Source: Clostridia bacterium
GTDB taxonomy: Bacteria > Bacillota > Clostridia > Oscillospirales > Acutalibacteraceae
DNA length: 64,000 nucleotides
Direction of reading: 5' to 3'
NCBI GenBank assembly: GCA_017434985.1
Contig: JAFSFY010000039.1
Coordinates: forward strand, 36,849-100,848
Under the pieces are notes generated by a model that was given only the letters and a program-made list of their open reading frames with translations, was not told the origin of the DNA and did not search any database. Positions 6,577-62,800 of this stretch are shown here, piece by piece. A program made the translations under genes and the position numbers. The first letter of the stretch is position 1. Every line of letters starts with the position of its first letter.

Positions 6577-6619
6577 CAATCTTTTCCGCTTGAATGCTAC
6601 GAAGAAATTTGGTATATAT

Positions 6620-7861: not shown

Positions 7862-7891
7862 ACGAGAGAAGTGTAAAAGGTGGTGTTCAAA

Positions 7892-33393: not shown

Positions 33394-34044
33394 ATGTTTG
33401 CTTGGTGGGAATCGTTGAGTGCCGCGTCGCACGTATTTGCGTGCATTGCCGTTCCGGCAACGCTGGTATTACTGATTCAAACGATTTTGATGTTTGTCGG
33501 CATCGGCGGCGAGGGCGCGGATGCTCCCGATACGCCGGATGTGGAGTTTGACGCGGATGCGGATCTCGATGTGGATATGTCCGACGGCGTGTTTGGCAAC
33601 GAGGTGCTTGAAAGTGATCCCGACCCGATGGGGCTTGACGGTTTGCGCATTTTTACGGTGCGCGGCATCATTGCCTTTTTGGTGGTGTTCGGTTGGGTCG
33701 GTGTGATGTTGGATTCGTCCGGAGCGGCGTTGTGGCTGTCGTTGCCCGTAGCGGCGGTCTGCGGGGTGGCGGTGATGGTGCTGTTGGCGTGGCTTATGCG
33801 TTCGGTTATGAAACTGCGCAGTGACGGCAACCTCGACAATCGCAACGCGCTCGGTGTATCGGGCAAAGTGTATCTCACCGTTCCCGCAAAACGTGCGGGA
33901 GAAGGCAAAGTGAACATTCTGTTGCAGGGCAGTTACGTAGAACGCAACGCCGTTACCGATGAGGCGGAACCCCTGACAACCGGCAGTGAGATCGTGGTGA
34001 TCGGTCTCAGCGGCCAATCCACGCTTGTTGTCAAGCGGAAATAG
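33394..34044 (+). CDS. NfeD-like membrane protein (YuaF/YqiJ-like partner of flotillin)
   Basis: N-terminal TM segments, an acidic segment DAPDTPDVEFDADADLDVD, and a C-terminal OB-like domain GKVYLTVPAKRAGEGKVNILLQGSYVERNAVTDE...GSEIVVIGL. Confidence 0.65.
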   Translation: MFAWWESLSAASHVFACIAVPATLVLLIQTILMFVGIGGEGADAPDTPDVEFDADADLDVDMSDGVFGNEVLESDPDPMGLDGLRIFTVRGIIAFLVVFGWVGVMLDSSGAALWLSLPVAAVCGVAVMVLLAWLMRSVMKLRSDGNLDNRNALGVSGKVYLTVPAKRAGEGKVNILLQGSYVERNAVTDEAEPLTTGSEIVVIGLSGQSTLVVKRK

Positions 34045-34091
34045 CGGAACTGAGGAAGTTCAAATAGACAAATTTAACGGAGGTATGTTGT

Positions 34092-35480
34092 ATGGAAGTT
34101 ATCTTGATTTGTGCCATTGTGTTGGTGGCAATTTCGTTCTTTGCGTGGATCTGTTCGCGCTATAAGAAATGCCCGTCCGACAAAATTATGGTCGTGTACG
34201 GTTCGATCGGTAAAAACAAAGACGGCACCAATCGCAGTGCAAAATGTATCCATGGCGGCGCTGAATTTGTGTTGCCCGTGTTTCAATCCTATGCGTTTTT
34301 GGATCTGACACCCATTTCCATTCAGGTGGACTTGACCAACGCCCTTTCGCGTCAAAACATCCGTATTGACGTTCCGTCCCGTTTTACCGTCGGTATCTCC
34401 ACCGAGCCGGGTGTGATGCAAAACGCGGCCGAGCGTTTGCTGGGACTGCAACTGTCGGAAATTCAGGAATTGTCCAAAGATATTATCTTCGGTCAAATGC
34501 GTTTGATCATTGCGACGATGGATATCGAGGAACTGAATACCGACCGTGATAAGTTTTTGGAAGCGGTCAGCACCAACGTGGAAACCGAACTGAAAAAGAT
34601 CGGTCTGCGCCTCATCAACGTGAACGTGACCGATATCAGCGATGAATCGGGCTATATCGCGGCCCTCGGTAAAGAAGCGGCGGCAAAAGCCATTAATGAT
34701 GCGAAAAAGAGCGTTGCCGAGCAGGAGCGCGACGGTTCGATCGGCGAAGCGAACGCGCATATGGATCAACGTATCAAGGTGGCTGACGCTGATTCGGTGG
34801 CTATCCAAGGTGAAAACGAGGCCAGAATGAAGATCGCGATGTCGGAAGCGGCGCTCAAAGAGCGTGAAGCCGAAGCGATGAAGATCGCGGTCACCGCCGA
34901 AAAGATCCAAGCCGCCAAGGCGTTGGAAGAATCGTATGCGGCCGAACAGGCGGCAGAAGAAGCCCGTCGCGCCAAGGAACAAGCAACCCTCGAAGCGGAT
35001 ATCATCGTCCGTACCGAGGCCAAAAAACGTCAGATGGAACTCGAAGCCGAAGCGGAAGCCGAACAAATTCGCCGCAAAGCCAAGGGTGAAGCGGATGCCA
35101 TCTATGCCAAAATGGAAGCGGAGGCGCGCGGTGCCGAGGAAATTCTTAAAAAGCAAGCAGCCGGTTTTGCTGAGATCGTAAAATCGGCAGGCGGTGACGC
35201 ACAAGCGGCGTTGCAACTGCTCATTGCGGATAAATTGGAAGAATTGATGCGTGTGCAGGTGGATGCAATTAAGAATATCAAGATCGACAAGGTCACCGTA
35301 TGGGACAACGGCCAAGGAGCCGACGGTAAGAGCGCGACGGCGAACTTTTTGTCGGGTATGATGAAATCGGTGCCCCCTCTGCAAGAGGTGTTTGCCATGT
35401 CGGGTATGCAACTGCCCGAAATTTTAGGGAAAAAGATGGAGGATGCGCCCACCGCTGCGGTTGGTGAAGAGCAAGTCTGA
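34092..35480 (+). CDS. floT: Flotillin-like SPFH/band-7 protein (FloT/YuaG-like)
   Basis: N-terminal TM, SPFH domain, and a long EA-repeat coiled coil (AEQAAEEARRAKEQATLEADIIVRTEAKKRQMELEAEAEAEQIRRKAKGEADAIYAKMEAEARGAEE). Confidence 0.85.
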   Translation: MEVILICAIVLVAISFFAWICSRYKKCPSDKIMVVYGSIGKNKDGTNRSAKCIHGGAEFVLPVFQSYAFLDLTPISIQVDLTNALSRQNIRIDVPSRFTVGISTEPGVMQNAAERLLGLQLSEIQELSKDIIFGQMRLIIATMDIEELNTDRDKFLEAVSTNVETELKKIGLRLINVNVTDISDESGYIAALGKEAAAKAINDAKKSVAEQERDGSIGEANAHMDQRIKVADADSVAIQGENEARMKIAMSEAALKEREAEAMKIAVTAEKIQAAKALEESYAAEQAAEEARRAKEQATLEADIIVRTEAKKRQMELEAEAEAEQIRRKAKGEADAIYAKMEAEARGAEEILKKQAAGFAEIVKSAGGDAQAALQLLIADKLEELMRVQVDAIKNIKIDKVTVWDNGQGADGKSATANFLSGMMKSVPPLQEVFAMSGMQLPEILGKKMEDAPTAAVGEEQV

Positions 35481-36324: not shown

Positions 36325-36531
36325 GTATTGTGTTGCCCCGCTCTGCCGTAATGTTTCTCGGGATAACCTGCTACTATCGTTAGCAGGTGGGTGCCCACCG
36401 TGCGGTTTCGCGCTCCCTTCGTCCCACGAGGTGGGGAGGTCTGCAAACCTGCCGCTCGAGCAGGGCTCCCTTCGTCAAAATGTAGTAGGGTTATAGAGAA
36501 ACGGTCCGCGCACAGAGCAGGGGAGAAACCG

Positions 36532-36843
36532 TTATTCTGCCGGCTGTTCCAGCTCTTCGATCTCGTACAGATCTTGGAGACGTTCTTCGAAGATCTCGGC
36601 GATCTCCTCAAACTCGTCGTCATCGTCAATGGTGACCATGATGTCTTCGCCGTCTTCCTCTTTCACGGCAAGGATCACGAGTTCCCCGTCGCCGTCCAGC
36701 AGATCGGCGGGGTTTTCGTAAACGGGAAGAAGGGCCACGTAGCGGCCGTCGTCCGTCTCGATGGCATCCACGATCTCAAATTGATGTTCCGCACCTTCAT
36801 CGTCCACAACCGTGACGATGTCATTTCCAAATTCTTCAGACAT
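36532..36843 (-). CDS. DUF1292-family small acidic protein (YrzB-like)
   Basis: IVTVVDDEGAEHQFEIVDAIETDDGRYVALLPVYENPADLLDGDGELVILAVKEEDGEDIMVTIDDDDEFEEIAEIFEERL is the characteristic DUF1292 pattern. Confidence 0.8.
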   Translation of the reverse strand: MSEEFGNDIVTVVDDEGAEHQFEIVDAIETDDGRYVALLPVYENPADLLDGDGELVILAVKEEDGEDIMVTIDDDDEFEEIAEIFEERLQDLYEIEELEQPAE

Positions 36844-36969
36844 AGCAATTCTCCGTTCTTATTATATCAAGTGGTATCTATTATGATACTCATTTTTCGC
36901 ATTTCCGTCAAGAGGAAACTTTTGTTCAACAAAATAAATAAAAAGTTTCAACTTTTTTTAAAAAAACTA

Positions 36970-36998
36970 TTGACTTTTAATAAAACGTATGCTATATT
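36970..36998 (+). promoter_or_regulatory. Strong sigmaA-type promoter TTGACT-N17-TATATT
   Basis: Seen directly. Drives the noncoding leader upstream of the TauE/SafE genes. Confidence 0.55.
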
Positions 36999-37004
36999 GT
37001 AGAT

Positions 37005-37434: not shown

Positions 37435-37803
37435 ATGACAAATGCGCAAAACCGATGGCGCTATGCGGTCATCGGGGCGTTGGCGGGTGTGGCCAACGGG
37501 TTGTTCGGATCGGGCGGCGGTTTGTTTTTGGTGCCGCTGTTCATCTCGTGGATCCGTATGGATGAAAAAAAGGCGTTTGCCACCTCGGTGGCGGTCATCT
37601 TTCCGTTGTCGATCGTTGCCTTTACGGTTTTTGCCTTGCGCGGCGGCGTGGAGTTTTCACTTGCGTGGCCGTACGTGATCGGCGGTGCCGTCGGCGGTCT
37701 GCTTTCCGGCACGTTGTTTAAGCGCGTGTCGGCCAAATGGCTGCATCGCCTGTTCGGCGCTTTGCTGCTGTACGGCGGCGTAAAGGCGGTGTTTCTGCTG
37801 TGA
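37435..37803 (+). CDS. TauE/SafE (TSUP) family transporter, N-terminal 4-TM half
   Basis: GALAGVANGLFGSGGGLFLVPLF motif. RBS AAAGGGGAG. Confidence 0.75.
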   Translation: MTNAQNRWRYAVIGALAGVANGLFGSGGGLFLVPLFISWIRMDEKKAFATSVAVIFPLSIVAFTVFALRGGVEFSLAWPYVIGGAVGGLLSGTLFKRVSAKWLHRLFGALLLYGGVKAVFLL

Positions 37804-38183
37804 CGTGGCTGGGAATAGCGGTCGGCATTGCAACCGGTATCATCAGCGGCTTCGGCGTTGGCGGCGGCTCGCTGTTGGTGCTGTATTTGACCGCCGTGAC
37901 GGGGATGGCGCAATACGATGCCTCCGGTATCAATCTGCTCTATTTTTTGTTTTGCGCACCGGCGGCATTGGTGTCGCATATACGCCACAAACGGGTCGAA
38001 TGGCAGGCCGTGATATGGTGCGTGGCGGCAGGTGTCGTCACGTCGGTGGCCGCGGCATTTCTCGCTTCGTATATGCAGGACGGCTGGTTACGGCGCCTGT
38101 TTGGCGGATTGCTTTTGTATATCGGTGTCCGCGAATTGTTTTTCGGCAAGAAAACGGACGAAAAATTCGAAAAAAAGTCATAA
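37800..38183 (+). CDS. TauE/SafE (TSUP) family transporter, C-terminal 4-TM half
   Basis: GIISGFGVGGGSLLVLYL motif. GTG start overlaps the upstream TGA (GTGA), indicating translational coupling. Confidence 0.7.
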   Translation: MTWLGIAVGIATGIISGFGVGGGSLLVLYLTAVTGMAQYDASGINLLYFLFCAPAALVSHIRHKRVEWQAVIWCVAAGVVTSVAAAFLASYMQDGWLRRLFGGLLLYIGVRELFFGKKTDEKFEKKS

Positions 38184-38281
38184 AAATTTCAAATAAATTC
38201 CTCGGTTTTGGTTGCAATTAAACGCAAGATATAGTAAAATATAAAAAACACATTGCAAGATGATGGAGGAATACACGGTTT

Positions 38282-39622
38282 ATGGCTATCACCCTCGATT
38301 CTCACTACGCAAACGGGTTCGTTCGTGAACATGAGTTGGCGGCTTTGCAACCGCAGATCACCACCGCCCACGAAATGTTGCATCAAGGAACCGGTCTCGG
38401 CAACGATTTCCTCGGTTGGCTCACCTTGCCGACCGACTATGATAAAGAAGAATTCGCGCGCATCAAAGCGGCGGCCGCCCGTATTAAGGACGATACCGAC
38501 GTGTTTATCGTCATCGGCATCGGTGGTTCGTACCTTGGTGCCCGCGCCGCGATCGAGTTTTTGAAATCTCCGCTTTACAACAACAAGAAAAAAGACACGC
38601 CCGACATCTATTTTGCCGGTAACAGCATCAGTTCCACCGCACTGGCGGAACTGCTTGAACTGTGCGAAGGCCGTCGCGTGTCGGTCAACGTGATCTCCAA
38701 ATCGGGAACCACTACGGAACCGGCCATTGCGTTCCGTGTGTTCCGCGATTATCTCGAAAAGACCGTCGGTGCCGAAGAGGCCAAACGTCGCATCTACGTC
38801 ACCACCGACAAAGCGCGCGGTGCTCTCAAAGGCTTGGCCGACGAAAAGGGTTACGAAACCTTTGTGGTGCCGGACGACGTGGGCGGTCGTTTCTCGGTGC
38901 TCACGGCGGTGGGGTTGTTGCCCATCGCGGTGGCCGGTTGCGATCTCGATGCGTTGATGAACGGTGCTGCCGCGGCACAGCGCGAGTTGTGTGACCCCAA
39001 TTTGGAGAACAACGACTGCTACCGCTATGCGGCGTTGCGCAATTTGTTGCTTCGCAAAGGTCGCGCGGTGGAGTTGATGGTCAGTTACGAGCCGTGCTAC
39101 GCGTTGATGGCGGAATGGTGGAAACAGCTGTACGGTGAAAGCGAAGGCAAAGACGGCAAGGGCTTGTTCCCGGCCTCGGTCATTTTCTCGACCGATCTGC
39201 ACTCGCTCGGTCAGTTCGTGCAAGATGGGTCCAACATCCTGTTCGAAACGGTCGTGATGATCGACAAAGCGCAGCGTGAAATGGTGATCGAGCACGATCC
39301 CGCCAACGTGGACGGCCTCAATTTCTTGGCAGGAAAAACAATGGCGGATATCAACCACAGTGCGTTTGAGGGCACCATCTTGGCGCACACCGACGGACAG
39401 ACCCCCAACTTGGTGTTGCACGTGCCGTCGGCGTGTGAAGAGGAACTTGGTTACCTCATCTACTTCTTTGAAAAAGCGTGCGCCATTTCGGGGTACTTGC
39501 TCGGCGTCAACCCGTTCGATCAACCCGGTGTGGAAGCGTACAAAAAGAATATGTTCGCCTTGCTCGGCAAACCGGGGTATGAGGCGGAAAAAGCCCGTCT
39601 TGAGCAACGCCTTGGTCGTTGA
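38282..39622 (+). CDS. pgi: Glucose-6-phosphate isomerase
   Basis: [18 protein letters not shown]; short bacterial-type PGI with conserved motifs. RBS GGAGGAATA. Confidence 0.95.
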
Positions 39623-53937: not shown

Positions 53938-54100
53938 TCTTGATCAAACTCTCTCGCTTGGCGGGGGAGTTTTTCTCTTATGCCAAGATGTGGGAGTTTT
54001 CGTCAACTATTGACTTTATAGCGATTTAGTGCTACACTTAGTTGAAGTGTATGCTTATATACCTATTGTTAGCGCAAAGGACAGTAAAGGAGAGCGGACT

Positions 54101-55321
54101 ATGCGGTTGTATATCGATCCCGGCACGGGCAGTATGCTGTTCACCATTTTGATTGGTGTGATCGGTGCGGCGTTCTATTCGTTGCGGATGTTGTTTATCA
54201 AATTGCGATACAAGTTCGGCGGCGGCAAGGTGGAGAACCTCGGTAAAAAGATCCCGTTTGTTATCTTTTCCGACAACAAACGCTATTGGAATATCTTTGA
54301 ACCCATCTGCAAGCGTCTGTCTGCTTACGGCAAAGAGATTTTGTACATCACCGGCTCTCCCGACGATGCCGCTTTGCAATGCGATCTGCCGAACTTTAAA
54401 GCGGAATACGCGCCCGGCAACAAATTGTACACCAAACTGAACTTTTTGGAAGCCAACGTGGTGTTGTCTACCACCCCCGGGTTGGATGTGTATCAGTGGA
54501 AACGCTCCAAGATGGTGGATTGCTATATCCACATTCCTCACGCAGCCAGTGAGATCGTACTGTACCGTATGTTCGGTATCGACTATTACGATGCGATTAT
54601 GCTTTCGGGCGACTATCAAGCCAAAAACATTCGCGATTTGGAACAGTTGCGTAACCTCCCCGAAAAAGAACTCACGATGATCGGCATTCCGTATATGGAC
54701 GAAATGGCGAAGCGTTTGGAAGTTTCCGGCCCTGCACCCGATCATCCGCGCACGGTGTTGCTTGCCCCCTCGTGGGGTTCCAGCGCGCTGTTGTCGGTCT
54801 ACGGCGGCAAGATCATCGACGTGCTTTTGAAAACGGGATACCACGTGATCGTGCGTCCTCACCCGCAATCTTTCACCTCTGAAAAAGAGATGATGGACAA
54901 GCTGATGGCGGAATATCCCGAATCCGATCAATTGGAATGGAACCGCGATACCGATAATTTTGACGTGTTGCGCCGTTCGGATATTCTTATTTCGGATTTC
55001 TCGGGCGTGATTTTCGATTTTACGTTGGTGTACGACAAACCCGTCATTTACACCGATCCCAAATTTGATTTAAGTTTGTACGATGCCTGGTGGTTGGAAG
55101 ACGAATTGTGGACGGTTTCCGCCCTGAAACGCCTTGGTATGCAACTTACCGACGAGAATATGGAAAACTTGAAAGAGTTGATCGACACCTGCATCAGCGA
55201 TCCGAGTTTTGCGGACGGCAGACGCAGTGTGAAAGAAGAAACGTGGGTCAATTTCGGCAACGGTGCCGATGCCGCCACCGCGTATTTGATCAAGAAATAC
55301 GAAGAAACGGAGGGGAAATAA
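54101..55321 (+). CDS. CDP-glycerol glycerophosphotransferase family protein (TagB/TagF-like) with an N-terminal TM
   Basis: RBS AAGGAGAG. LLAPSWGSS (compare APTWR) and ILISDFSGVIFDF (compare SDYSSV.FDF), motifs of the Glyphos_transf family. Confidence 0.7.
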   Translation: MRLYIDPGTGSMLFTILIGVIGAAFYSLRMLFIKLRYKFGGGKVENLGKKIPFVIFSDNKRYWNIFEPICKRLSAYGKEILYITGSPDDAALQCDLPNFKAEYAPGNKLYTKLNFLEANVVLSTTPGLDVYQWKRSKMVDCYIHIPHAASEIVLYRMFGIDYYDAIMLSGDYQAKNIRDLEQLRNLPEKELTMIGIPYMDEMAKRLEVSGPAPDHPRTVLLAPSWGSSALLSVYGGKIIDVLLKTGYHVIVRPHPQSFTSEKEMMDKLMAEYPESDQLEWNRDTDNFDVLRRSDILISDFSGVIFDFTLVYDKPVIYTDPKFDLSLYDAWWLEDELWTVSALKRLGMQLTDENMENLKELIDTCISDPSFADGRRSVKEETWVNFGNGADAATAYLIKKYEETEGK

Positions 55322-58093
55322 ATGTCATTGCTCTCAATTCTGGAAACGATATTTATCGGTCCTCTCAAACTGCTTTTTGAAATTATTTTTCAAGTAGCGG
55401 ACCGTTTTGTGGATCATCCCGGCTTGTCCATCATCGTGCTCAGCTTGGTGATGAACATTTTGGTACTTCCGCTTTACAAGCGTGCCGACGCGATGCAAGA
55501 AGAATCGCGTGACACGGAAGCGCGCCTTTCGCGTGGTGTTAACCACATCAAAAAGGTGTTCTCGGGCGACGAGCGGATGATGATCCTGCAAACGTATTAT
55601 CGCCAGAACAACTACAAGCCCACCAATGCCCTTAACGGCTCGGTCTCGTTGCTTCTGGAAATTCCGTTTTTTATGGCGGCGTACCAATTCTTGTCCCATT
55701 TGGACGTGTTAAGCGGCGTGTCGCTCGGTCCGATCAAAGACCTGTCGGCCCCCGATGGGCTCATTGTCATCGGCTCGCTTTCCATTAACTTGTTGCCGGT
55801 GTTGATGACGGCGGTCAACGTGATTTCATCCGCCATCTATCTGAAAGGGTTTCCGCTGAAAACCAAGATTCAGTTGTATGCGATGGCGTTGTTTTTCCTC
55901 GTGTTTTTGTACACGTCGCCTTCCGGCCTCGTGTTCTATTGGACGCTGAACAACGTGTTCTCGCTCGCCAAAAACATTTTCTACAAAATCAAAAATCCCG
56001 CCAAAGTGTTGCGCATTCTGACCGCCGTGTTGGGTGTGGCGTCCATCGGCGTGGGCTTTGCGGTGTTCCCTGCCAATCCGCTCAAACGCGCGTTTTTGAT
56101 CGTGCTCGGTTTGGCGCTGATGTTCCCGCTTTTGTGGAATCTCCTCCAATCCAAAATCACCATCAAGAAAACCGAAAGCACGGCACAACCGAACAAAAAA
56201 GTGTTCGTGTGCGGTTGCTTGTTCTTGACGGCGTTGATGGGGCTCTTGATCCCCTCCACCTTTATTGCGGCTTCGCCGCAGGAATACGTGGACATCTCCT
56301 ATTTCCACCATCCGCTTTGGTATCTTGTCAGCACGGCGGCGATGGCGGTCGGCTTCTTTATGGTGTGGTTCCGCGTGTTCTATTGGCTTGCCAGCCCCAA
56401 AGGCAAAGTGATCTTTGATCGGTTGATGTGGGTGCTGTGCGGTATCACCATCGTCAACTATATGTTCTTCGGCACCAATCTCGGTGTCATTTCTTCCAAC
56501 TTGGTGTACGACAACGAAATGGCATTCACCACGCTGGAATATCTGCTCAATACGCTTGCTGTGTTGGCGGTGGCGGTGCTGTTGTATTTGGTTGCCACCA
56601 AGTGGAGCAAGATCATCCCGCCCGTATTGTTGGTGGCGTCCATCGCGCTTACCGCCATGAGCGGTCTGCACGTGTACACCACGGCGGAATCGGTCAGCCA
56701 GATCTCGGTGGAGCAAAGTGACACGGTTCCCAACTTCAACTTAAGCAAAACCGGGAAAAACGTTATCGTGATGATGATTGACCGCGGTATGGGTTCGTAT
56801 TTGCCGTATTTGATGCAGGAACGTCCCGAACTGCGCGAACAATTTGCCGGGTTTACGTGCTATACCAACGTTATTTCGCACGGCGCGTGCACCAACTTCG
56901 GTTCGCCCGGCTTGTTCGGCGGTTATGAATACACGCCGGTGGAAATGAACAAGCGCGATGGCGAGTTGTTGAAGGACAAGCACAACGAAGCATTGAAATT
57001 GATGCCGGTGTTGTTTGCTCAAAACGGTTATGACGTAACCGTGTGCGACCCCGTGTATGCCAACTACAATTGGCTCGCTGATACAAGTATTTATGACGAG
57101 TATCCCGACATTGACACGTTTGTCACCGAAGGTGCGTTTTCGGATAACAAAGGTAAGATTGAAAAGATCAATAATGGCCATCGCAACTTCTTCTGCTTCT
57201 CGGCGATGAAATCGATGCCGTTGCTTCTGCAACCGTTTGTGTATGATGATGGTGCTTACAATCAAGCCGTTGCCCAAGACGAAGGAGAGTACACCTATGT
57301 GAAGCAGGTCATCGAGGCAGGTTCTACCACCAAAGCCGAGGGTGTCAGCAAGGATTTCGTTAATCCTTTCAACGTGTTGGTCAACCTACCAAACATTACC
57401 AAGACGACCGACGATGAAGCCGGTACGTTTTTGATGATCGCCAACAACGCGGCTCACGAAGATAGTTTGTTACAACGGCCCGAGTATGTGCCCACGCCGA
57501 CCGTTGACAACACGGAGTTTGATGCCAAGTTCGGTGACAACGTGACGGTGGACGGTAAAGTGATGCACCTGACCACGGTTGAACAAAAAGCGCACTACCA
57601 GGCCAACATGGCGGTGATGCTCCAACTTGGTAAATGGATGGACTACCTGCGCGAACAGGGTGTTTACGATAACACCAAGATCATTTTTGTGGCTGACCAC
57701 GGGTTTTGTGCCAAACAGTTTGACGAGCTGATCGTCGACGGTCACGATGTGCAGATCTATCATCCGCTGTTGCTGGTGAAAGACTTCGACAGTACCGAAT
57801 TTACCGTTTCGGATGAGTTTATGACCAACGCCGATGTACCGACTATTGCTTTTGCCGATTGTGTGGAGAATCCGGTCAATCCCTTTACCGGAAATCCCAT
57901 CAATAACGATGAAAAGACGGCACACGATCAGTATATTACGCTTTCACTGGAATGGGATACCAAGACGAACAACGGCAACACCTTTACGCCTTCTAAATGG
58001 GCCAAGGTTTCCGACGATATGTGGAACAAAAAGAATTGGGAGTTCTACAACGAAAAAGTCGTCTTGAAAGACCACGAATTCCCAACGGAATAA
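55322..58093 (+). CDS. Fusion protein: N-terminal YidC/Oxa1-family membrane insertase domain + additional TM segments + C-terminal LtaS/sulfatase-like alkaline-phosphatase-superfamily domain
   Basis: GLSIIVLSLVMNILVLPLYKR, MMILQTYYRQNNYKPTNALNGSVSLLLEIPFFMAAYQFL, LGPIKDLSAPDG and PSGLVFYWTLNNVFSLAKN align motif-for-motif with SpoIIIJ/YidC. The C-terminal NVIVMMIDRGMGSY...TNFGSPGLFGG...KIIFVADHGF carries AP-superfamily metal-site, nucleophile and DHG motifs. Confidence 0.7.
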   Translation: MSLLSILETIFIGPLKLLFEIIFQVADRFVDHPGLSIIVLSLVMNILVLPLYKRADAMQEESRDTEARLSRGVNHIKKVFSGDERMMILQTYYRQNNYKPTNALNGSVSLLLEIPFFMAAYQFLSHLDVLSGVSLGPIKDLSAPDGLIVIGSLSINLLPVLMTAVNVISSAIYLKGFPLKTKIQLYAMALFFLVFLYTSPSGLVFYWTLNNVFSLAKNIFYKIKNPAKVLRILTAVLGVASIGVGFAVFPANPLKRAFLIVLGLALMFPLLWNLLQSKITIKKTESTAQPNKKVFVCGCLFLTALMGLLIPSTFIAASPQEYVDISYFHHPLWYLVSTAAMAVGFFMVWFRVFYWLASPKGKVIFDRLMWVLCGITIVNYMFFGTNLGVISSNLVYDNEMAFTTLEYLLNTLAVLAVAVLLYLVATKWSKIIPPVLLVASIALTAMSGLHVYTTAESVSQISVEQSDTVPNFNLSKTGKNVIVMMIDRGMGSYLPYLMQERPELREQFAGFTCYTNVISHGACTNFGSPGLFGGYEYTPVEMNKRDGELLKDKHNEALKLMPVLFAQNGYDVTVCDPVYANYNWLADTSIYDEYPDIDTFVTEGAFSDNKGKIEKINNGHRNFFCFSAMKSMPLLLQPFVYDDGAYNQAVAQDEGEYTYVKQVIEAGSTTKAEGVSKDFVNPFNVLVNLPNITKTTDDEAGTFLMIANNAAHEDSLLQRPEYVPTPTVDNTEFDAKFGDNVTVDGKVMHLTTVEQKAHYQANMAVMLQLGKWMDYLREQGVYDNTKIIFVADHGFCAKQFDELIVDGHDVQIYHPLLLVKDFDSTEFTVSDEFMTNADVPTIAFADCVENPVNPFTGNPINNDEKTAHDQYITLSLEWDTKTNNGNTFTPSKWAKVSDDMWNKKNWEFYNEKVVLKDHEFPTE

Positions 58094-58108: not shown

Positions 58109-58993
58109 ATGTATCGTGTGGATAATGCCGTCATTATGGCGGCAGGTACGGCCAGCCGTTTTGCACCTCTTTCGTATGAGCGCCCGAAAGCACTCATTGA
58201 GGTGAAAGGCGAGGTGCTCATCGAACGGCAGATCCGCCAACTGCAAGAGGCGGGTATCCGCGACATCATCATCGTCGTGGGATATATGAAAGAGTGTTTT
58301 GCGTATTTGGAAGAAAAATGCGGTGTCACCATCGTGGAAAACACCGAATATCTGACCCGCAATAACAACTCCACCATTTTTGCCGTAAAAGACTATTTGA
58401 AAAATACCTATATTTGTTCGTCTGACAACTACTTTTCGCGCAATCCGTTCGAAAGCGAAGTAGACGACGCTTACTACGCCGCCATTTACGCCGACGGCGA
58501 AACCAAAGAATGGTGTATGACCGAAGACAAAGAGGGGTACATCGATTCGGTGACGGTCGGCGGGCGCGATGCGTGGTTTATGCTTGGTCATACGTTTTGG
58601 ACCGAGGAGTTTACCGAAAGGTTTTTGCGCATTTTGGAACGTATTTACGACGAGCCTCGTACGGCGGATCTGTTATGGGAATCCATTTATATGGAGCACC
58701 TCGACCAACTGAAAATGAAGATCCGCAAGTACGACAGTGACGTGATCTTTGAGTTTGACACGTTGGATGAATTACGCGAGTTTGATGAGAGTTATAAAGC
58801 CGACACGCGCTCGGCAATTCTCAAATCCATTGCGGCACAGTTGGGATGTACCGAGGAAGAGATCGTGCACGTCACGTCGTACAAAGACGGCAATAACGCT
58901 GCCGCCGGTATTCATTTTGAAGTAGGCGAAAAACGGTATGCCTACGCCTATAAAACCCGTCAATTGAGCGCGAAAGCGCCCGATACCGTATAA
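58109..58993 (+). CDS. licC: LicC-like nucleotidyltransferase (CTP:phosphocholine cytidylyltransferase family) with a ~60-aa C-terminal extension
   Basis: NAVIMAAGTASRFAPLSYERPKALIEV...IIIVVGYMKECFAYLEEKCGV closely parallels pneumococcal LicC (AIILAAGLGTRLRPLTENTPKALVQV...IIIIVGYLKEQFDYLKEKYGV). Confidence 0.8.
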   Translation: MYRVDNAVIMAAGTASRFAPLSYERPKALIEVKGEVLIERQIRQLQEAGIRDIIIVVGYMKECFAYLEEKCGVTIVENTEYLTRNNNSTIFAVKDYLKNTYICSSDNYFSRNPFESEVDDAYYAAIYADGETKEWCMTEDKEGYIDSVTVGGRDAWFMLGHTFWTEEFTERFLRILERIYDEPRTADLLWESIYMEHLDQLKMKIRKYDSDVIFEFDTLDELREFDESYKADTRSAILKSIAAQLGCTEEEIVHVTSYKDGNNAAAGIHFEVGEKRYAYAYKTRQLSAKAPDTV

Positions 58994-59025: not shown

Positions 59026-59934
59026 ATGGGAGAGATCATTAAACAAGACTTGAGCGCCGTTTCCGATTTGTTGAAATTGGTTGTGGGGAAGGACGACTAT
59101 TGTGATATCAAGCGCATGGGCGGCCTGACCAACCACACATACTACGTGGCATTTGCCGACGGCGCGGAATACGTGGTGCGTATTCCCGGGGAAGGCACCG
59201 AAGAACTCATTGTGCGAAGCGATGAGGAGAAGAGTACGACACTTGCCTGCAAACTCGGTGTGGATGCCAAGATGCTGCATTTCGGCAAGGATGGTTCCAA
59301 GGTGACCGAATACATCAAAAACGCGGTCACGATGTCGTCTGAAACGTTGAAAGAGCCTGCTCGCATCGGGCAGGTCGCCGATATCTTCAATGTGATGCAT
59401 TCGTGTGGTGAAGACACGGGCGTTCCGTTTGAGGTGTTCGATATGGCGGCGGGGTATGAGAAGATCATCCGCGATATGAACGTGCCGATGTTCGATGACT
59501 ACGCCGAAAACAAACAAATTGTGATGGACATCAAAGCGGAGATCGACGCGTCATTCGACATCAGAAAAGTCCCTTGCCATAACGATCCGCTTTGCGAAAA
59601 CTGGGTGGTCGGTGACGGCGACAGAATGTACCTGATCGATTGGGAATACGCCGGTATGAACGATGGTATGTGGGATATTGCCGACGTGTCCATCGAAGCG
59701 GGGTACAACGACGAACAAGACGCGTTGCTTCTTGAGAAATACTTGAAAAAAGTTCCCGATACCTTGGACAAAAAGCATTTCTTGGCAAGCAAAATTTACG
59801 TGGATTATCTGTGGACCTTGTGGGCGATGGCCCGTGTTCCGTACGACGGAAAACCGATGGAAGATTGGGCGACCGAGCGCTACGCAAGGATGAAAGATAA
59901 TATAACCAACTTTTCGCAACTTAAGGAGGAGTAA
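59026..59934 (+). CDS. licA: Choline/ethanolamine kinase (LicA-like)
   Basis: Brenner motif CHNDPLCENWV and choline-kinase motif LIDWEYAGMND. RBS AAAGGAGGAA. Confidence 0.85.
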   Translation: MGEIIKQDLSAVSDLLKLVVGKDDYCDIKRMGGLTNHTYYVAFADGAEYVVRIPGEGTEELIVRSDEEKSTTLACKLGVDAKMLHFGKDGSKVTEYIKNAVTMSSETLKEPARIGQVADIFNVMHSCGEDTGVPFEVFDMAAGYEKIIRDMNVPMFDDYAENKQIVMDIKAEIDASFDIRKVPCHNDPLCENWVVGDGDRMYLIDWEYAGMNDGMWDIADVSIEAGYNDEQDALLLEKYLKKVPDTLDKKHFLASKIYVDYLWTLWAMARVPYDGKPMEDWATERYARMKDNITNFSQLKEE

Positions 59935-59938
59935 AACG

Positions 59939-60892
59939 ATGACAGCAGGAATTATTGCGGGTATCACTTGGGCTCTTGAAACGGTTATTTTGGGTATCGC
60001 GTTGGCGATGTCCCCGTTCTGTTCGACCGAACAAGCCATCTTTTTGGCTCCGTTCGTCAGCACCTTCCTTCACGATGCGTGCTCCGCCATTTGGGCGCTC
60101 ATTTATAACGGTGTGCGCGGCAAACTCGGCGACGTGTGGAAAGCGTTCAAAACCAAAAGCGGCAAATGGGTAGCCTTGGCGGCAACCATCGGCGGCCCCG
60201 TCGGTATGACGGGCTACGTGTTGGCGGTCAACTATATGGGCGCTTCCATCGGTGCGGTGGCGAGTGCTATTTTCCCCGCCATCGGCAGCGTGCTTGCGTT
60301 CTTCTTCCTGAAAGAAAAAATGAAATGGCACCAATGGTTGTTTTTGATCGTGACCTTGCTCGGCGTGTATGGTCTCAGCTATTCGCCCGACTTGGACATC
60401 AAAAATTTCTGGCTCGGTCTTATCGGTGCGTTGATGTGCGCGTTCGGTTGGGGCATTGAGGCGGTTATCGTCGCCAAATCGTTGACCGACCCCGAAGTGA
60501 CCGACGAATACGCGTTGCAAATTCGCCAAACCACCTCCGCGCTTGTGTACGGCATCATCATTTTGCCGATCATCAAAGGTTGGGGTTTCACCGCGAGTTT
60601 GTTTACCGGCGGCACCGGTTGGTTGTTGCCCACCATTGCGATTGCGGCATTGTTTGCCACCGTTTCGTACCTCTTCTATTACAAAGCGATCGCGCAGATC
60701 GGCGCTTCCAAAGCCATGGCATTGAATGTCACCTATACGGCGTGGGCGATCGTCTTTACGGTTATTCTTTCGCTCATCAAGCAAGAAACGGTTTCCTTGT
60801 CTTTCATCACCATTTTGTGTGCCATCGTGGTGTTGGTGTGCGGTATCTTTGCTGCTGCTGACTTCAAAGAGATTTTGGCGAAGAAAAAATAA
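59939..60892 (+). CDS. licB: LicB-like choline permease (DMT/EamA superfamily, 10 TM)
   Basis: AIFPAIGSVLAFFFLKEKMKW aligns with LicB AIYPAISVLLAFFFLKHK. RBS AAGGAGGAG. Confidence 0.75.
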   Translation: MTAGIIAGITWALETVILGIALAMSPFCSTEQAIFLAPFVSTFLHDACSAIWALIYNGVRGKLGDVWKAFKTKSGKWVALAATIGGPVGMTGYVLAVNYMGASIGAVASAIFPAIGSVLAFFFLKEKMKWHQWLFLIVTLLGVYGLSYSPDLDIKNFWLGLIGALMCAFGWGIEAVIVAKSLTDPEVTDEYALQIRQTTSALVYGIIILPIIKGWGFTASLFTGGTGWLLPTIAIAALFATVSYLFYYKAIAQIGASKAMALNVTYTAWAIVFTVILSLIKQETVSLSFITILCAIVVLVCGIFAAADFKEILAKKK

Positions 60893-60895
60893 AGG

Positions 60896-60928
60896 TAAAA
60901 CGCCCCTCGGAAGAGGGGCGTTTTGGTT
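60896..60928 (+). terminator. Intrinsic terminator after licB
   Basis: aaacgcccctc-ggaa-gaggggcgttt followed by a T-run. Confidence 0.65.
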
Positions 60929-61045
60929 GTAAAAAACAAACTTTTACCAGTAAAAAAGTTGCATCTTTTTGAAAGAAGATGGACAATCACAGGGGTATAT
61001 GCTACCATAAGTTTGCAGATAACTCGTATTGAAGGGGACTACATT

Positions 61046-62800
61046 ATGCAAACGATATACTTGTCCGAACAAGGTGTTCGCACAGGGGAGGATATTACGG
61101 TATCCTTGTGTAAACTGTTTTGTGAATATCGCGAAAATACGACTTTTGTTTTTGAAAACGGGGATTATTATTTTTCACCGCATGCTGAAATGAAAGCGGA
61201 TTATCGGTTGTCCAATACCGATGTAGCTCCGGAACGCACGTTGGGGTTGTGGCTCAAAAAAATGAAAAATTGCACCTTGGTCGGTAACGGCGCACGCTTG
61301 TGGTTTGCGGGACATATGCAACCTTTTACGCTGGACGAGTGTGAAAACGTAACGATACAAGGATTTGTCATTAACTGGAAAAAACCGATGGTGGCGGAGG
61401 GCATTGTGCAAGCTGTTTCCGACAAAACGGTGGATGTGTATGTTGATCCCGATAAATTCCCTCATCGTATGCGCGATGGCCAATTGGAATTTGATGTGGG
61501 TGCCGATGAATGGTACCCGCTTGTCCGGTGGGGCCATAACGTGTTTGAACCGCATTTTCGCACCTTGCGCCGTAAAGCGGGTGACTGCATTTCCACAGGA
61601 AATGGTGTGACCGATTTGGGTGGCGATAGGTATCGCATCGAATCTCACCGCGAGGTGGTGGCGTGCCCCGGCGATATCGTGGTGTTGCGCCATAACAGTC
61701 GCAAGCACGCCGGCATTTTCAGTGAACATTGCCGTGACATTACCATTGAGGATGTTACGGTGCATTCTTGTGGCGGTTTGGGTTGTTTGTCACAGTTTTG
61801 CCATAATATGACTTACCGCCGTGTGCATTTTGTTCCCGACCGCGCGGCGGGACGGTTGATTACCAACGGCCGTGACGATGGGATGCACATCACCTGTAAC
61901 AGCGGCACGGTCACCATTACGGAATGCACTTTCCTTGGTTTAATGGATGATCCCATCAACGTGCACGCTTGTTGTGTCAAGGTGACTGAGGCGATCGGCA
62001 ACCGCGCGTTGCGTTGCCAATACGGTCACGTGCAAGCACAGGGCTTCAAGTATTGGGCCAAAGCGGGGGACGAGATCGTCTTTATCGACCGCGGTAATAT
62101 GTCGTGTGTCTATAAAGCGAAGGCCAAGGCATATATGTTGGAAGCAATCGATACCTTTACCATCGAATTTGAAGAAGAATTGCCCGATTTTGTGTTGAAG
62201 ATGGCTCAAAAAGGTGCGGCCTTGGCCATTGACAATGTCACTAACACGTCGGCATTTGTGTGTACCAACAACCGCTTCGGTAGTTGCCGCGCGCGCTCGG
62301 TGCTGATCTCTACGCCGAAACCCGTGTTGATTGAAAACAACTATTTTGAGTCCTCCGGATCGGCCGTATTGGTGGCAGGCGATGCCAATGGTTGGTTCGA
62401 GTCAGGCGAATGCCACGACGTTGAGATTCGCGGCAACGTGTTTACGCAAGCGTGTCTCACCAGTAACTACGAATTTTGCGAAGGTGTCATTAGTGTGTGT
62501 CCCGTGGTTCCAAAACCCGAAGTGGAGAAACCCTTCCACAAACACATCCGCATCGTCGACAACACGTTTGATACGGCAGATGCCCCGGTCTTGTATGCCT
62601 ATTCGTGCGAGGGATTGCAATTTGTCAACAACCGCATTTTCAAAAGTCCCGCCGCGGAAAAATGGCATCCCAACGAAAATCGTATCAAACTGCGCTATTG
62701 TGTAGGCGCTTCGCTTCAAAACAATCAGTGGATCGGCACGTTTTCTGACGATACCATTCTTGAACAAGAACACTGCTTGCATACTACCTTTGATCACTAA
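61046..62800 (+). CDS. Right-handed parallel beta-helix (pectin-lyase-fold) protein, possible glycosidase/lyase acting on the surface polymer
   Basis: RBS GAAGGGGA. Repeating beta-helix rungs (GNGARLWFAG, ITIEDVTVHSCGGLG, NNRFGSCRARSVLIS, NNYFESSGSAVLVAGD, IRGNVFTQ). No signal peptide is evident at the chosen start. GC is about 43-47%. Confidence 0.6.
   Translation: MQTIYLSEQGVRTGEDITVSLCKLFCEYRENTTFVFENGDYYFSPHAEMKADYRLSNTDVAPERTLGLWLKKMKNCTLVGNGARLWFAGHMQPFTLDECENVTIQGFVINWKKPMVAEGIVQAVSDKTVDVYVDPDKFPHRMRDGQLEFDVGADEWYPLVRWGHNVFEPHFRTLRRKAGDCISTGNGVTDLGGDRYRIESHREVVACPGDIVVLRHNSRKHAGIFSEHCRDITIEDVTVHSCGGLGCLSQFCHNMTYRRVHFVPDRAAGRLITNGRDDGMHITCNSGTVTITECTFLGLMDDPINVHACCVKVTEAIGNRALRCQYGHVQAQGFKYWAKAGDEIVFIDRGNMSCVYKAKAKAYMLEAIDTFTIEFEEELPDFVLKMAQKGAALAIDNVTNTSAFVCTNNRFGSCRARSVLISTPKPVLIENNYFESSGSAVLVAGDANGWFESGECHDVEIRGNVFTQACLTSNYEFCEGVISVCPVVPKPEVEKPFHKHIRIVDNTFDTADAPVLYAYSCEGLQFVNNRIFKSPAAEKWHPNENRIKLRYCVGASLQNNQWIGTFSDDTILEQEHCLHTTFDH

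Follow-up and report, generated by a model that had tools for sequence, protein, structure and literature searches.

How might a bacterium place phosphocholine on its surface when the genes that import and activate choline stand in an operon without LicD? This question is raised by a five-gene operon in the window, that is, in the whole stretch of 64,000 nucleotides that was analysed. Its order is a TagF-like gene, a gene fusing a YidC-like module to an alkaline-phosphatase (AP) superfamily domain, licC, licA and licB. The last three encode a licC-like nucleotidyltransferase, proposed to be a CTP:phosphocholine cytidylyltransferase (58109..58993, +; PF12804, PF00483), a licA-like choline kinase (59026..59934, +; PF01633, E 6.6e-18) and a licB-like EamA-family permease, proposed to import choline (59939..60892, +; PF00892). 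By consensus scan only, a terminator-like hairpin (53946-53972) lies 5' of a promoter-like site, TTGACT-17-TACACT with an upstream TG (54010..54038, +), ahead of the TagF-like gene, and a palindromic hairpin of 12 bp, rich in G+C and bordered by A/T runs (60897..60924), terminator-like on both strands, stands at the end of the operon. The original prediction had placed the fusion gene between a TagF-like gene and licC/licA/licB in a locus without LicD. Pfam confirmed the neighbours, and no PF04991 match occurred in the 58 window ORFs scanned; LicD was likewise absent from the precomputed Pfam annotation of six distinct gene contexts and from the top ten recurrent neighbour clusters.

The fusion gene (55322..58093, +) is, as had been claimed, one unbroken frame; it has 923 codons and an ATG start. 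An artefact joining two genes is excluded, since all 120 best homologues are full length (904-943 aa). The identical protein is found on 6 contigs, and the same gene order is present at three sequenced places from separate samples. Both domains were recovered within the one polypeptide by Pfam: PF02096 (60KD_IMP) matches residues 34-221 with 82.5 bits against a cut-off of 35 (E 4.3e-23; model positions 2-161 of 163), while the PF00884 (Sulfatase) match at residues 480-797 is marginal, with 26.5 bits against a cut-off of 25 (E 4.9e-6). The AF2 model contains 12 TM helices, namely a YidC core of five, a hairpin of two and a five-TM module, followed by the catalytic domain outside. This topology is supported by the positive-inside count, with 16 K/R in 74 inside-loop residues vs 3 in 124 outside. 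The statement that such an architecture had not been described holds insofar as a literature search for it found no describing paper, but thousands of copies exist in public databases under the automatic name 'YidC/Oxa1 family membrane protein insertase'. In other words, the fusion is uncharacterised rather than unknown.

The YidC/Oxa1-like module occupies residues 1-225 (55322..55996, +); it begins with amphipathic helices at the N-terminus, after which come TM1, a helical hairpin on the cytoplasmic side and TM2-TM5. In the AF2 model, of moderate confidence here (pLDDT 56-88), helices run over residues 33-79, 83-95, 100-124, 157-173, 179-197 and 201-221, giving a five-TM core with the cytoplasmic hairpin between TM1 and TM2. 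The module aligns to residues 340-527 of E. coli YidC and to B. halodurans YidC2, and many polar groove residues are conserved in it. Every hallmark of Gram-positive YidC had been claimed; the PF02096 match, the PD loop and the TM5 'YW..NN' motif are indeed present, but the groove Arg is missing and the protein has neither a signal peptide nor a lipobox. In both PDB alignments Asn45 (55454-55456) lies opposite R366 of E. coli YidC and the TM1 Arg of B. halodurans YidC2, and among 119 diverse family members this position is N in 106, S in 6 and never R or K. The groove charge is reported to be strictly conserved, and Gram-positive YidC to need the Arg for client insertion (PMC8920935). Because the canonical Arg is missing throughout the family, an insertase function of the module, ordinary or dedicated, appears, on sequence grounds, less likely than was first assumed.

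Beyond this module, a two-helix linker hairpin, TM6-TM7 (residues 226-291; 55997..56194, +; AF2 helices 226-247 and 253-278), leads the chain back to the cytoplasmic face, with a loop rich in K at its end, as judged from the distribution of positive charges. The five-TM membrane module TM8-TM12 (residues 292-452; 56195..56677, +), delimited by AF2, Foldseek and conservation, has near-invariant G307 and W349 and is of the type found ahead of the catalytic domain in EptA, MCR-1, PbgA and LtaS. Foldseek aligned 647-716 columns to full-length PbgA (6xlp), EptA (5fgn) and MCR-1 (9nww), and the last 630 residues of the fusion resemble the entire TM-plus-AP body of PbgA, EptA, MCR-1 and LtaS. The AP-superfamily domain of sulfatase-like fold (residues 470-923; 56729..58090, +), assigned by both fold and profile, is predicted to be extracytoplasmic; together with TM8-TM12 it reproduces the layout of the transferase class, an N-in multi-TM anchor followed by an outside AP domain.

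The conserved residues of this domain are D487, T524, H712, N784, D792-H793, K820 and D838. The catalytic set D487/T524/H712/D792/H793 is kept in 118-119 of the 119 diverse members, and the metal-binding D487 and the Asp-His of the 'DHG' motif, D792-H793 (57695-57700), in all of them; around DHG the sequence can be aligned with that of sulfatases and of phosphonate monoester hydrolase. T524 (codon 56891-56893) is the putative nucleophile, given its conservation (118/119) and its position at the N-terminus of helix 524-533 in the AF2 model. The formylglycine motif of type I sulfatases, CxPxR (C/S-x-P-x-R), is absent, the site reading x-T-N-F-G-x-P with a variable residue before T524; the domain should not be filed as a sulfatase. 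Neither phmmer nor a profile search of the PDB retrieved an LtaS, EptA or GacH chain, and none of the NCBIfam models of the EptA/MCR-1/PptA/LtaS/GacH families matched; at sequence level, the PDB entry that the AP profile matches best bears the name choline-sulfatase. Standalone 5-TM-plus-AP relatives that begin at residue 292 and have no YidC module also exist (L090, L091), so that enzymes of this class can do without a fused YidC.

The upstream gene (54101..55321, +) encodes a TagF-like CDP-alcohol phosphotransferase of 406 aa (PF04464, E 1.4e-10), in which an N-terminal TM helix (residues 7-39) leads into a GT-B domain on the cytoplasmic side. Its AF2 model (pLDDT 85.8) finds TagF 3l7l as the best PDB fold match (E 6.5e-13), so that profile and GT-B-like fold agree. 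The TM helix carries an invariant YIDPGTGSMLFT motif, and within Y4-T15, at the outer end of this helix, 12 of the first 15 residues are invariant. At the translational-coupling junction (55309..55324, +), read directly from the sequence, a GGAGGGG Shine-Dalgarno lies inside the TagF-like 3' end and the TAA stop abuts the fusion's ATG (TAAATG). The same end-to-start adjacency was seen in all five homologue look-ups. The TagF-like gene adjoins the fusion in 74 of 80 species representatives and is adjacent in 46 of the 60 metagenome loci with enough upstream flank. Co-occurrence with lic genes was also found, with licC or licA within 10 kb in 54 of the 80 (licC in 52, licA in 49-50, licB in 42). 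No lic gene lies within 10 kb in the other 26 loci, and the TagF-fusion pair is therefore not obligatorily choline-linked. The strongest and most conserved partner of the fusion is the TagF-like gene, not the lic genes.

Relatives are widespread. The homologues number more than 4000, and a relative occurs in at least 575 GTDB species; residues 226-923 are matched by 912 clusters (50% identity) with E<=1e-30. Every named host belongs to the Clostridia, except for one MAG titled 'uncultured Bacteroides sp.'. The cassette is accessory: its flanks vary between genomes, and its context is not rnpA-yidC-jag. When other neighbours were clustered, nothing recurrent emerged (the commonest cluster occurred in 11 of 80), which, with the lack of LicD in the clusters, marks the cassette as self-contained. 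Distant relatives adjoin phosphonate genes (Ppm-cytidylyltransferase, Ppd and Fe-ADH), and a parallel cytidylyl-activation logic is known from phosphonate tailoring (PMC6697681). Tandem arrays of 2-5 fusion paralogues also occur; for instance, as many as five full-length paralogues of the fusion can stand behind a single TagF-like gene (L117, L147, L102). This arrangement fits one shared donor serving several acceptor-specific transferases.

The near-constant pairing with the TagF-like gene and the frequent presence of choline-activation genes make the fusion a strong candidate for the missing LicD-independent route of surface phosphocholine. Our leading reading, tentative and given slightly less than an even chance, is that the five-gene operon dispenses with LicD and attaches phosphocholine to a molecule of the cell surface by a relay. 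From family membership, choline would be imported by LicB, phosphorylated by LicA and converted to CDP-choline by LicC. The membrane-anchored TagF-like enzyme, proposed as the user of CDP-choline, would then move phosphocholine to the hydroxyl of a membrane lipid at the cytoplasmic face. The simplest acceptor would be diacylglycerol, yielding phosphatidylcholine; a glycolipid or polyprenyl carrier may serve as well. In the third and weakest step, the YidC-derived module, with its polar groove devoid of Arg, might pass the zwitterionic head group across the membrane as a local scramblase or conduit, possibly also docking the TagF-like TM helix. Finally, Thr524 of the AP domain would attack the lipid phosphodiester at the metal site formed by D487, D792 and H793, a mechanism suggested by the fold and conserved residues and modelled on EptA, PptA, LtaS and GacH. 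Phosphocholine would thereby reach a wall polysaccharide, teichoic acid, exopolysaccharide or protein. Beside PEP-mutase/cytidylyltransferase genes, the same pair may handle a CMP-activated phosphonate.

Precedents come from the literature. E. coli YidC scrambles phospholipids in vitro (PMC11047089), FtaD is a TagF-like enzyme that takes a non-alditol CDP donor (bioRxiv 10.64898/2026.02.12.704994), and PptA, of the AP superfamily, puts phosphocholine or phosphoethanolamine on pilin (PMC10434233). In a gut Clostridium, exopolysaccharide phosphocholine needs licABC, with no transferase named (bioRxiv 10.1101/2024.06.12.598703). The AP domain had been put forward as a non-LicD transferase, and this candidacy is retained, but not the direct use of CDP-choline: the domain is predicted to lie outside and would have no access to a cytoplasmic donor. 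The CDP-choline user is more likely the TagF-like enzyme, and the AP domain would act on its lipid-linked product. A broader proposal, that a YidC/Oxa1 domain was recruited as a dedicated head-group flippase, fused to its client transferase and forming with the TagF-like enzyme a previously unrecognised pathway of loading, flipping and transfer, is more doubtful. Against the relay itself count the 26 loci with no lic gene nearby and the standalone relatives with no YidC module; a dedicated flippase may also be superfluous if housekeeping proteins scramble lipids in general. Overall, the original prediction stood on the fusion, its conservation and its co-occurrence with lic genes, and had to be revised on the YidC hallmarks, the use of the donor and the main partner.

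The best-surviving alternative, unlikely yet serious, is that the TagF-like enzyme itself substitutes for LicD, placing phosphocholine directly onto a lipid-linked glycan precursor in the cytoplasm, and that the fusion has a separate job. The fusion might then take glycerol-phosphate or phosphoethanolamine from ordinary membrane phospholipids and attach it to the same polymer, like GacH, LtaS or EptA, or handle the decorated precursor after export, its YidC module serving only as an anchor or stabiliser. The TagF family, whose fold the partner has, normally works on lipid-linked polymers at the cytoplasmic face, and FtaD decorates a glycan directly from an unusual CDP donor. Moreover, the AP module is about equally like LtaS, GacH, EptC and BcsG, and nearby lic genes are missing in a good part of the loci (26/80). 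Such a division of labour, however, does not account for the translational coupling of the two genes and their adjacency in 74 of 80 loci, for the single TagF-like gene ahead of arrays of 3-5 fusion paralogues, or for a cassette that is self-contained and lies away from any polysaccharide or teichoic-acid locus.

Somewhat less probable again is that the YidC module serves docking or insertion and not the passage of lipids. Its groove would hold the TagF-like TM helix, whose N-out/C-in orientation is the Pf3-coat-like topology typical of YidC clients. A stable trans-membrane complex would thus link the cytoplasmic and extracytoplasmic enzymes; alternatively, the module would insert in cis its own seven downstream helices. 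The invariant residues at the outer end of the partner's helix suggest a specific intramembrane contact, translational coupling favours co-assembly, and the YidC fold is kept together with its polar groove residues. Against this stand the loss in every member of the groove Arg, reported to be needed by Gram-positive YidC for client insertion (PMC8920935), the standalone relatives that need no fused YidC, and the presence of up to five fusion paralogues per TagF-like gene. Docking is also compatible with the relay and does not exclude it.

It is very improbable that the AP domain is an outward-facing hydrolase, a choline phosphodiesterase or phospholipase-C-like enzyme akin to ENPP6, ENPP7 and choline-sulfatase-like enzymes, which would supply the Lic pathway with choline or phosphocholine cleaved from lipids of host or dietary origin. 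The choline-sulfatase entry among PDB matches and the linkage to a choline importer and kinase would fit, but twelve TM helices and a TagF-like partner are superfluous for scavenging, and the link to phosphonate biosynthesis genes indicates building instead. In addition, membrane-anchored 5-TM-plus-AP proteins of known activity are head-group transferases acting on the lipids of their own membrane. That the fusion is no more than the organism's housekeeping YidC insertase carrying a long addition at its C-terminus, as its public annotation and the comfortable PF02096 score would have it, is scarcely credible, since it stays under every NCBIfam YidC cut-off (at best 74.5 vs 84.3 bits for TIGR03592, with the equivalogs far below), lacks the groove Arg and occurs in tandem arrays of an accessory cassette.

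Surface phosphocholine is a major host-interaction signal, recognised through C-reactive protein, natural antibodies and the PAF receptor. The licABC-dependent exopolysaccharide phosphocholine of a gut Clostridium alters host fat metabolism (bioRxiv 10.1101/2024.06.12.598703), and the cassette offers a concrete candidate for the missing transfer step in the at least 575 species that have a relative; one carrier, Hydrogeniiclostridium mannosilyticum (WP_112333642.1), is in culture. If the broader flippase proposal is true, hundreds of Clostridia species of gut and rumen would display on their surface zwitterionic head groups activated with cytidine: phosphocholine and, in certain clades, phosphonates of the aminoalkyl or hydroxyalkyl type. 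Such a pathway would take the place of LicD and connect two routes so far treated as separate, the CDP-choline route of Lic and the lipid-donor route of PptA. If the YidC module moves lipid head groups, it would be, to our knowledge, the first natural Oxa1-family domain specialised for lipids, and would lend the scrambling that insertases show in vitro a physiological meaning. Thousands of entries named as YidC/Oxa1 insertases are, very probably, not housekeeping insertases.

Among known systems, EptA, MCR-1 and PptA share with the fusion five TM helices in N-in orientation that lead into an extracytoplasmic domain of the AP superfamily, a Thr nucleophile (putative in the fusion) and a metal site built from D/E...DH. 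They pass a head group from a membrane phospholipid to a surface acceptor, as is proposed here. Foldseek aligns 647-653 columns including the TM region, but identity is only 10-12%, with no sequence-level match. The fusion differs in its seven extra N-terminal helices (YidC core plus hairpin), its Gram-positive host, its link to Lic (CDP-choline) genes and its TagF-like partner; according to PMC10434233, nothing indicates that Lic-1 and PptA coexist. LtaS, LtaP, GacH and BcsG likewise combine a multi-TM anchor with an outside AP domain and decorate or polymerise on the outer face from phospholipid donors, decoration on that face being proposed for the fusion too; none of them gives a sequence-level match. 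The first metal ligand of the fusion is the Asp of an 'MxDR' motif, not Glu as in LtaS, and the cassette contains no CDP-glycerol or LTA-anchor genes. PbgA/YejM is a lipopolysaccharide-binding regulator of Gram-negative bacteria for which we know of no demonstrated transferase activity; in the fusion family the complete catalytic set is conserved.

YidC, SpoIIIJ and YidC2 share the five-TM core, the TM1-TM2 cytoplasmic hairpin, the PD loop motif and the TM5 'YW..NN' motif. The fusion differs in lacking the groove Arg, signal peptide and lipobox and in being accessory and not housekeeping; it also has no free YidC C-terminal tail, because its chain runs on into seven helices and an enzyme. The Lic-1 system with LicD, found in Streptococcus pneumoniae and Haemophilus influenzae, has the same LicB, LicA and LicC steps and the same expected end result, phosphocholine on a surface glycoconjugate, but the cassette has no local LicD, and transfer is proposed to be split between a cytoplasmic TagF-like step and an extracytoplasmic AP step. 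In three-component extracytoplasmic glycosylation, CsbB/GtrB acts first, followed by the GtcA/GtrA flippase and a YfhO/GtrV-type transferase. By analogy only, the proposed logic is the same: a lipid carrier would be loaded inside and flipped, and transfer would take place outside. The protein families are entirely different, however, the cargo would be a phospho-head group instead of a sugar, and in the cassette the modules proposed for flipping and transfer are fused.

The YidC-AP fusion is encoded at 55322..58093 (+) by an open reading frame (ORF) that begins with ATG and runs through 923 codons in one unbroken frame, in agreement with the continuous gene described in the original prediction. 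Both of the domains expected from that prediction were recovered in Pfam: PF02096 (60KD_IMP/YidC) covers residues 34-221, nearly the entire model (E 4.3e-23), and PF00884 (Sulfatase) covers residues 480-797 with 26.5 bits, barely above its threshold of 25. In NCBIfam, YidC models alone matched the fusion, every one under its cut-off; no model matched the C-terminal part, and the collection has no curated family for the protein as such. The database record is MBQ6830304.1, titled ‘YidC/Oxa1 family membrane protein insertase’, and that of the TagF-like partner encoded directly upstream is MBQ6830303.1.

An artefactual joining of two genes is ruled out, since the identical protein occurs on 6 contigs, 120 of the 120 best homologues are full length, and a family HMM finds the YidC module in 129 of the 150 best cluster representatives, the remainder being mostly visibly truncated ORFs. 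The same gene order recurs in three sequenced places from separate samples. More than 4000 homologues reached significance in a word-indexed search; the 120 best measure 904-943 aa with 98-100% query coverage, and most carry both Pfam domains. With residues 226-923 alone, an exhaustive search of 50% identity clusters retrieved 2557 clusters at E<=1e-3, of which 912 also pass E<=1e-30. Scanning one genome per species revealed a relative in at least 575 GTDB species. The best 80 species loci are titled Clostridia (Oscillospiraceae, Acutalibacteraceae, Lachnospiraceae, Ruminococcus, Faecousia, Vescimonas), except for one metagenome-assembled genome (MAG) labelled ‘uncultured Bacteroides sp.’ (L019). 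Carriers are mainly gut and rumen MAGs and include one cultured isolate, Hydrogeniiclostridium mannosilyticum ASD2818 (WP_112333642.1, UniProt A0A328U8S9).

The AlphaFold2 model of the fusion, based on 120 homologues (mean pLDDT 84.9, pTM 0.73), predicts twelve transmembrane (TM) helices, with very high confidence in the C-terminal domain and moderate confidence (56-88) in the YidC part. TM1 of the YidC core (residues 33-52) is followed by a cytoplasmic helical hairpin (53-95) and by TM2-TM5 (100-221). Next come an extra hairpin, TM6-TM7 (226-278), a K-rich loop, five further helices, TM8-TM12 (292-452), and a globular domain (470-923). With the YidC core set in its canonical orientation, the predicted loops hold 16 K/R per 74 inside residues versus 3 per 124 outside, and from this skew the catalytic domain is predicted to be extracytoplasmic. 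The N-terminus has neither a signal peptide nor a lipobox; residues 1-30 comprise a pair of short amphipathic helices, aligned to the helix ahead of TM2 in E. coli YidC. Whether they lie on the outer surface or cross the membrane, the remaining topology is the same.

Genuine shorter relatives begin exactly at fusion residue 292 (P0226, and P0228, which has stop codons upstream), which supports a decomposition into a YidC core, a two-helix adaptor and a 5-TM-plus-AP enzyme. Other short representatives were considered as proof that the fusion is optional and were mostly rejected, as they are contig-end fragments or, in the case of P0145, frameshifted; only the residue-292 starters look genuine. 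In P0145 (L092:1585-4243) a +1 frameshift splits the fusion, leaving the YidC module in frame 1 and the rest in frame 2. Either a sequencing error or a pseudogene may explain the split, and the case is a warning when standalone forms are counted.

The YidC module is a true YidC homologue: its profile can be aligned along its whole extent to B. halodurans YidC2 and E. coli YidC, with E values of about 3e-9 to 5e-9. Conservation was assessed in 119 sequences, namely the window fusion and 118 representatives at 36-51% identity to it. Many polar intrahelical residues are kept (S41 and T163 in 113/119 each, N166 in 109/119, N210 in 114/119, N211 in 100/119 and S214 in 110/119), which indicates that the hydrophilic groove is under selection. 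The groove arginine position (R366 in E. coli, the TM1 Arg in YidC2) is occupied by Asn45, and across the family this position is N in 106 sequences, S in 6, and R or K in none of the 119. In the literature the groove positive charge is called strictly conserved among YidC homologues (PMC8920935). The fusion is a member of the YidC superfamily in which the functional residue most conserved across that family is missing.

In the predicted model, the AP-superfamily fold of the C-terminal domain is certain. Foldseek aligned 647-716 columns of the fusion, including the TM region, to full-length PbgA/YejM (E 4.8e-9), EptA and MCR-1, and for its soluble domain found LtaS, LtaP and numerous sulfatases; the fold search on this domain gives no choice between hydrolase and transferase. 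PDB sequence searches with the whole protein and with an AP-domain profile matched just the DHG region, to sulfatases and a phosphonate monoester hydrolase. Neither LtaS nor EptA was matched in these searches. Within the family, D487, T524, H712, N784, D792, H793, K820 and D838 are each kept in 118-119 of the 119 sequences. In the model T524 begins a helix, which is where the nucleophile of the AP superfamily is usually found. A formylglycine sulfatase was considered and rejected, as the C/S-x-P-x-R motif is missing from the 119 sequences and the residue ahead of T524 varies. Because the domain combines an intact, selected active site with Thr, a 5-TM anchor and a predicted outward-facing position, we infer that its best-supported assignment is to the lipid-head-group transferases (EptA, PptA, LtaS, GacH, BcsG).

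The most informative evidence on the fusion is its genomic company. As originally proposed, a TagF-type PF04464 gene (54101..55321, +) lies directly upstream, and a licC-like nucleotidyltransferase (58109..58993), a licA-like choline kinase (59026..59934) and a licB-like EamA permease (59939..60892) lie directly downstream. The absence of LicD also held, with no Pfam LicD match among 58 ORFs scanned across the 64-kb window. The TAA of the TagF-like gene directly abuts the fusion ATG, and a GGAGGGG Shine-Dalgarno sequence lies within the last TagF-like codons. Consensus scans alone place a promoter-like site at 54010-54038, 5' of the unit, and a strong palindromic hairpin at 60897-60924, 3' of it, with exactly these five genes in between. 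For the 80 top-ranking GTDB species loci, ORF-based counting puts a TagF-like gene next to the fusion and on its strand in 72, and tblastn-based counting in 74. A licC or licA gene is found no further than 10 kb away in 54, as the suggested co-occurrence with lic genes would require, and EamA is present in 42. These counts are lower bounds, limited by contig extent and crude ORF calling. Gene order is reshuffled among genomes, with licCAB before or after the pair, and the pair itself remains joined.

No other neighbour cluster occurs in more than 11 of the 80 loci. The top ones are UvrA, Rce1-like, purine/cytosine-type permease, BspA-LRR and M23 peptidase, and the top ten contain no LicD, glycosyltransferase or Wzx/MurJ cluster. 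A search for neighbours hinting at the acceptor, such as glycosyltransferases, Wzx/MurJ flippases and LCP ligases, gave none above that frequency; the cassette is self-contained, and its acceptor would be encoded elsewhere. The upstream PotABCD, HAD and Acyl_transf_3 genes were rejected as members, being conserved in the closest relatives only. The same applies to a gene at 60923-62800 (+), right after the terminator-like hairpin, which encodes a beta-helix protein with GLAA-B-type beta-barrel domains; it is kept only in the closest relatives (L001, L002) and probably lies outside the cassette. The GC content of the cassette (0.49-0.51) is slightly lower than the surrounding level of about 0.52-0.55, a difference too small and non-diagnostic to signal a foreign island.

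The rest of the window consists of housekeeping genes, such as potABCD, plsY, gpsA, der, mgsA, metG and a glycogen operon. A 357-aa protein at 30237-31310 (+) joins a GT2 glycosyltransferase domain to a C-terminal GtrA/DPMS-type transmembrane domain, and is another synthase-plus-membrane-module fusion, of the kind making lipid-linked sugars for extracytoplasmic glycosylation. Two adjoining GHL10 (PF02638) proteins are encoded at 6590-11029 (+); the second, of 1049 aa, has an Amidase_3 N-acetylmuramoyl-L-alanine amidase domain at its C-terminal end, an arrangement uncommon among cell-wall hydrolases. Four ORFs of 175-735 aa have no Pfam match at E<=1e-5 (13778-15985 (-), 33394-34044 (+), 36391-37002 (+) and 37461-37988 (-)), and the 735-aa one may be the permease of the neighbouring ABC ATPase gene (15989-16888). 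Near-equal antisense ORFs occur at 4587-5921 (+) and 4575-5915 (-), 34074-35411 (-) and 34092-35480 (+), and 38189-39607 (-) and 38282-39622 (+). They are probably a codon-usage effect, and the 444-aa ORF opposite the glutamate dehydrogenase gene has no Pfam match. Such shadow ORFs confound crude ORF calling in some loci.

The TagF-like partner has a cytoplasmic GT-B body with TagF as its best PDB match. Sequence conservation is even higher in this partner than in the fusion, its 120 best homologues showing 72-100% identity. The N-terminal TM helix of the partner carries at the outer end the segment YIDPGTGSMLFT (residues Y4-T15, window 54110-54145), which does not vary in 67 homologues despite their 72-93% identity elsewhere. 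Invariance of this degree within a membrane anchor points to a specific contact, or to a catalytic role, inside the membrane.

In more distant relatives, the pair keeps different company. At L091 (1-9968) it is preceded by a PEP-mutase/cytidylyltransferase fusion, an Fe-alcohol dehydrogenase and a TPP-dependent decarboxylase, a gene set that constitutes an early phosphonate pathway with nucleotidyl activation. Homologues of the decarboxylase Ppd lie near the pair at L093:2-637, where the gene is immediately upstream of the fusion, and at L097:5534-6646, L102:206-1318 and L121:21948-22787. Phosphonate tailoring parallels the Lic pathway via CMP activation (Rice et al., PMC6697681). These contexts suggest that the machinery installs phosphonate head groups there. 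L091 also encodes a second 5-TM-plus-AP paralogue without YidC (8001-9968), separated from the fusion by a 106-aa ORF. Variant activation genes occur elsewhere, namely a licC-licA fusion (590 aa) beside the ethanolamine transporter family gene EutH (L006:1-1755) and a second NTP_transferase and APH-kinase pair on the opposite strand near the cassette (L008:15623-17536); in view of these, choline may not be the head group in every case.

More than one fusion copy is present in 13 of 80 metagenome loci. Tandem full-length paralogues, each about 50% identical to the window fusion, can stand behind one TagF-like gene. There are five at L117:3429-18581 and four at L147:8755-21025, where licC, licA and EamA precede them; L102:6854-16395 has a remnant besides at least three copies, and L097:8699-17276 shows an alternating TagF-fusion-TagF-fusion-fusion order.

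Domain content, predicted topology, conserved catalytic and groove residues, and gene linkage are the direct observations from which we infer a pathway. The activated donor, CDP-choline or CMP-phosphonate, would be cytoplasmic, and the AP domain would work outside. The sole cytoplasmic phosphotransferase of the cassette is the TagF-like enzyme. Members of the TagF family use CDP-alcohols as donors and pass the phospho-alcohol part to a hydroxyl. That an unusual CDP donor can be accepted within this family is illustrated by FtaD of Clostridioides difficile (bioRxiv 10.64898/2026.02.12.704994). The TagF-like enzyme would first place phosphocholine on a membrane lipid inside, most simply converting diacylglycerol to phosphatidylcholine; this lipid would then reach the outer leaflet, and the AP domain would pass phosphocholine to the final acceptor. 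To our knowledge, every characterised membrane-anchored AP transferase (EptA, LtaS, GacH, BcsG) draws its head group from an outer-leaflet lipid. PptA is likewise cited as a lipid-head-group user (PMC10434233). Given the inside donor, the outside AP domain, the single cytoplasmic phosphotransferase and this lipid dependence, such a three-step relay is the shortest path, and we give it, tentatively, close to an even chance of being right overall.

The fused YidC module would be well placed for the middle step. Phospholipid scrambling has been described for E. coli YidC in vitro and for Oxa1-family proteins in simulations (PMC11047089). It is a speculation that losing the groove Arg and keeping the polar lining is what a zwitterionic head-group passenger, rather than an acidic peptide tail, would call for. 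A flippase role is conceivable on these grounds, if rather doubtful. The paralogue arrays that follow one TagF-like gene are consistent with a common donor serving transferases of differing acceptor specificity. These arrays, like the tight coupling of the pair, would be left unexplained if the TagF-like enzyme were a direct substitute for LicD and the fusion did a separate job of the LtaS, GacH or EptA type, a division of labour that accounts for the 26 of 80 loci without nearby lic genes and that we consider unlikely. Somewhat less likely still, the YidC module might dock or insert the N-out TM helix of the TagF-like partner; the invariant motif in that helix speaks for this role, which is compatible with the relay. 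A scavenging choline phosphodiesterase would match the fold similarity to ENPP6/7 and choline-sulfatase, but would leave the twelve TM helices, the partnership with a TagF-like enzyme and the phosphonate-biosynthesis contexts hard to explain, and seems very improbable. A housekeeping YidC is hardly credible, because the groove Arg is missing, NCBIfam cut-offs are unmet, the cassette is accessory with variable flanks, and paralogues form tandem arrays.

In the literature searched, which covers subscription journals thinly, no description of a YidC-sulfatase/LtaS fusion or of a TagF-like CDP-choline transferase was found. The domains are known; their combination and the logic of the pathway are undescribed. 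In Clostridium immunis, an exopolysaccharide carries licABC-dependent phosphocholine with effects on host metabolism; the preprint states that lic loci had previously not been found in clostridia, and its text mentions neither licD nor an identified transferase (bioRxiv 10.1101/2024.06.12.598703). Functionally, the closest relatives of the fusion are EptA/MCR-1/PptA and LtaS/GacH/BcsG, and PbgA is structurally closest to its whole TM-plus-AP body, yet at the sequence level the fusion belongs to none of them. In the reviewed pathways phosphocholine is attached in one of two ways, LicD using CDP-choline and PptA presumably using phosphatidylcholine, and the review states that there is no evidence of the two routes coexisting (PMC10434233). 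The cassette would join the LicD-type and PptA-type routes, and might, as a possibility to be held with some reserve, represent a categorically new load-flip-transfer system.
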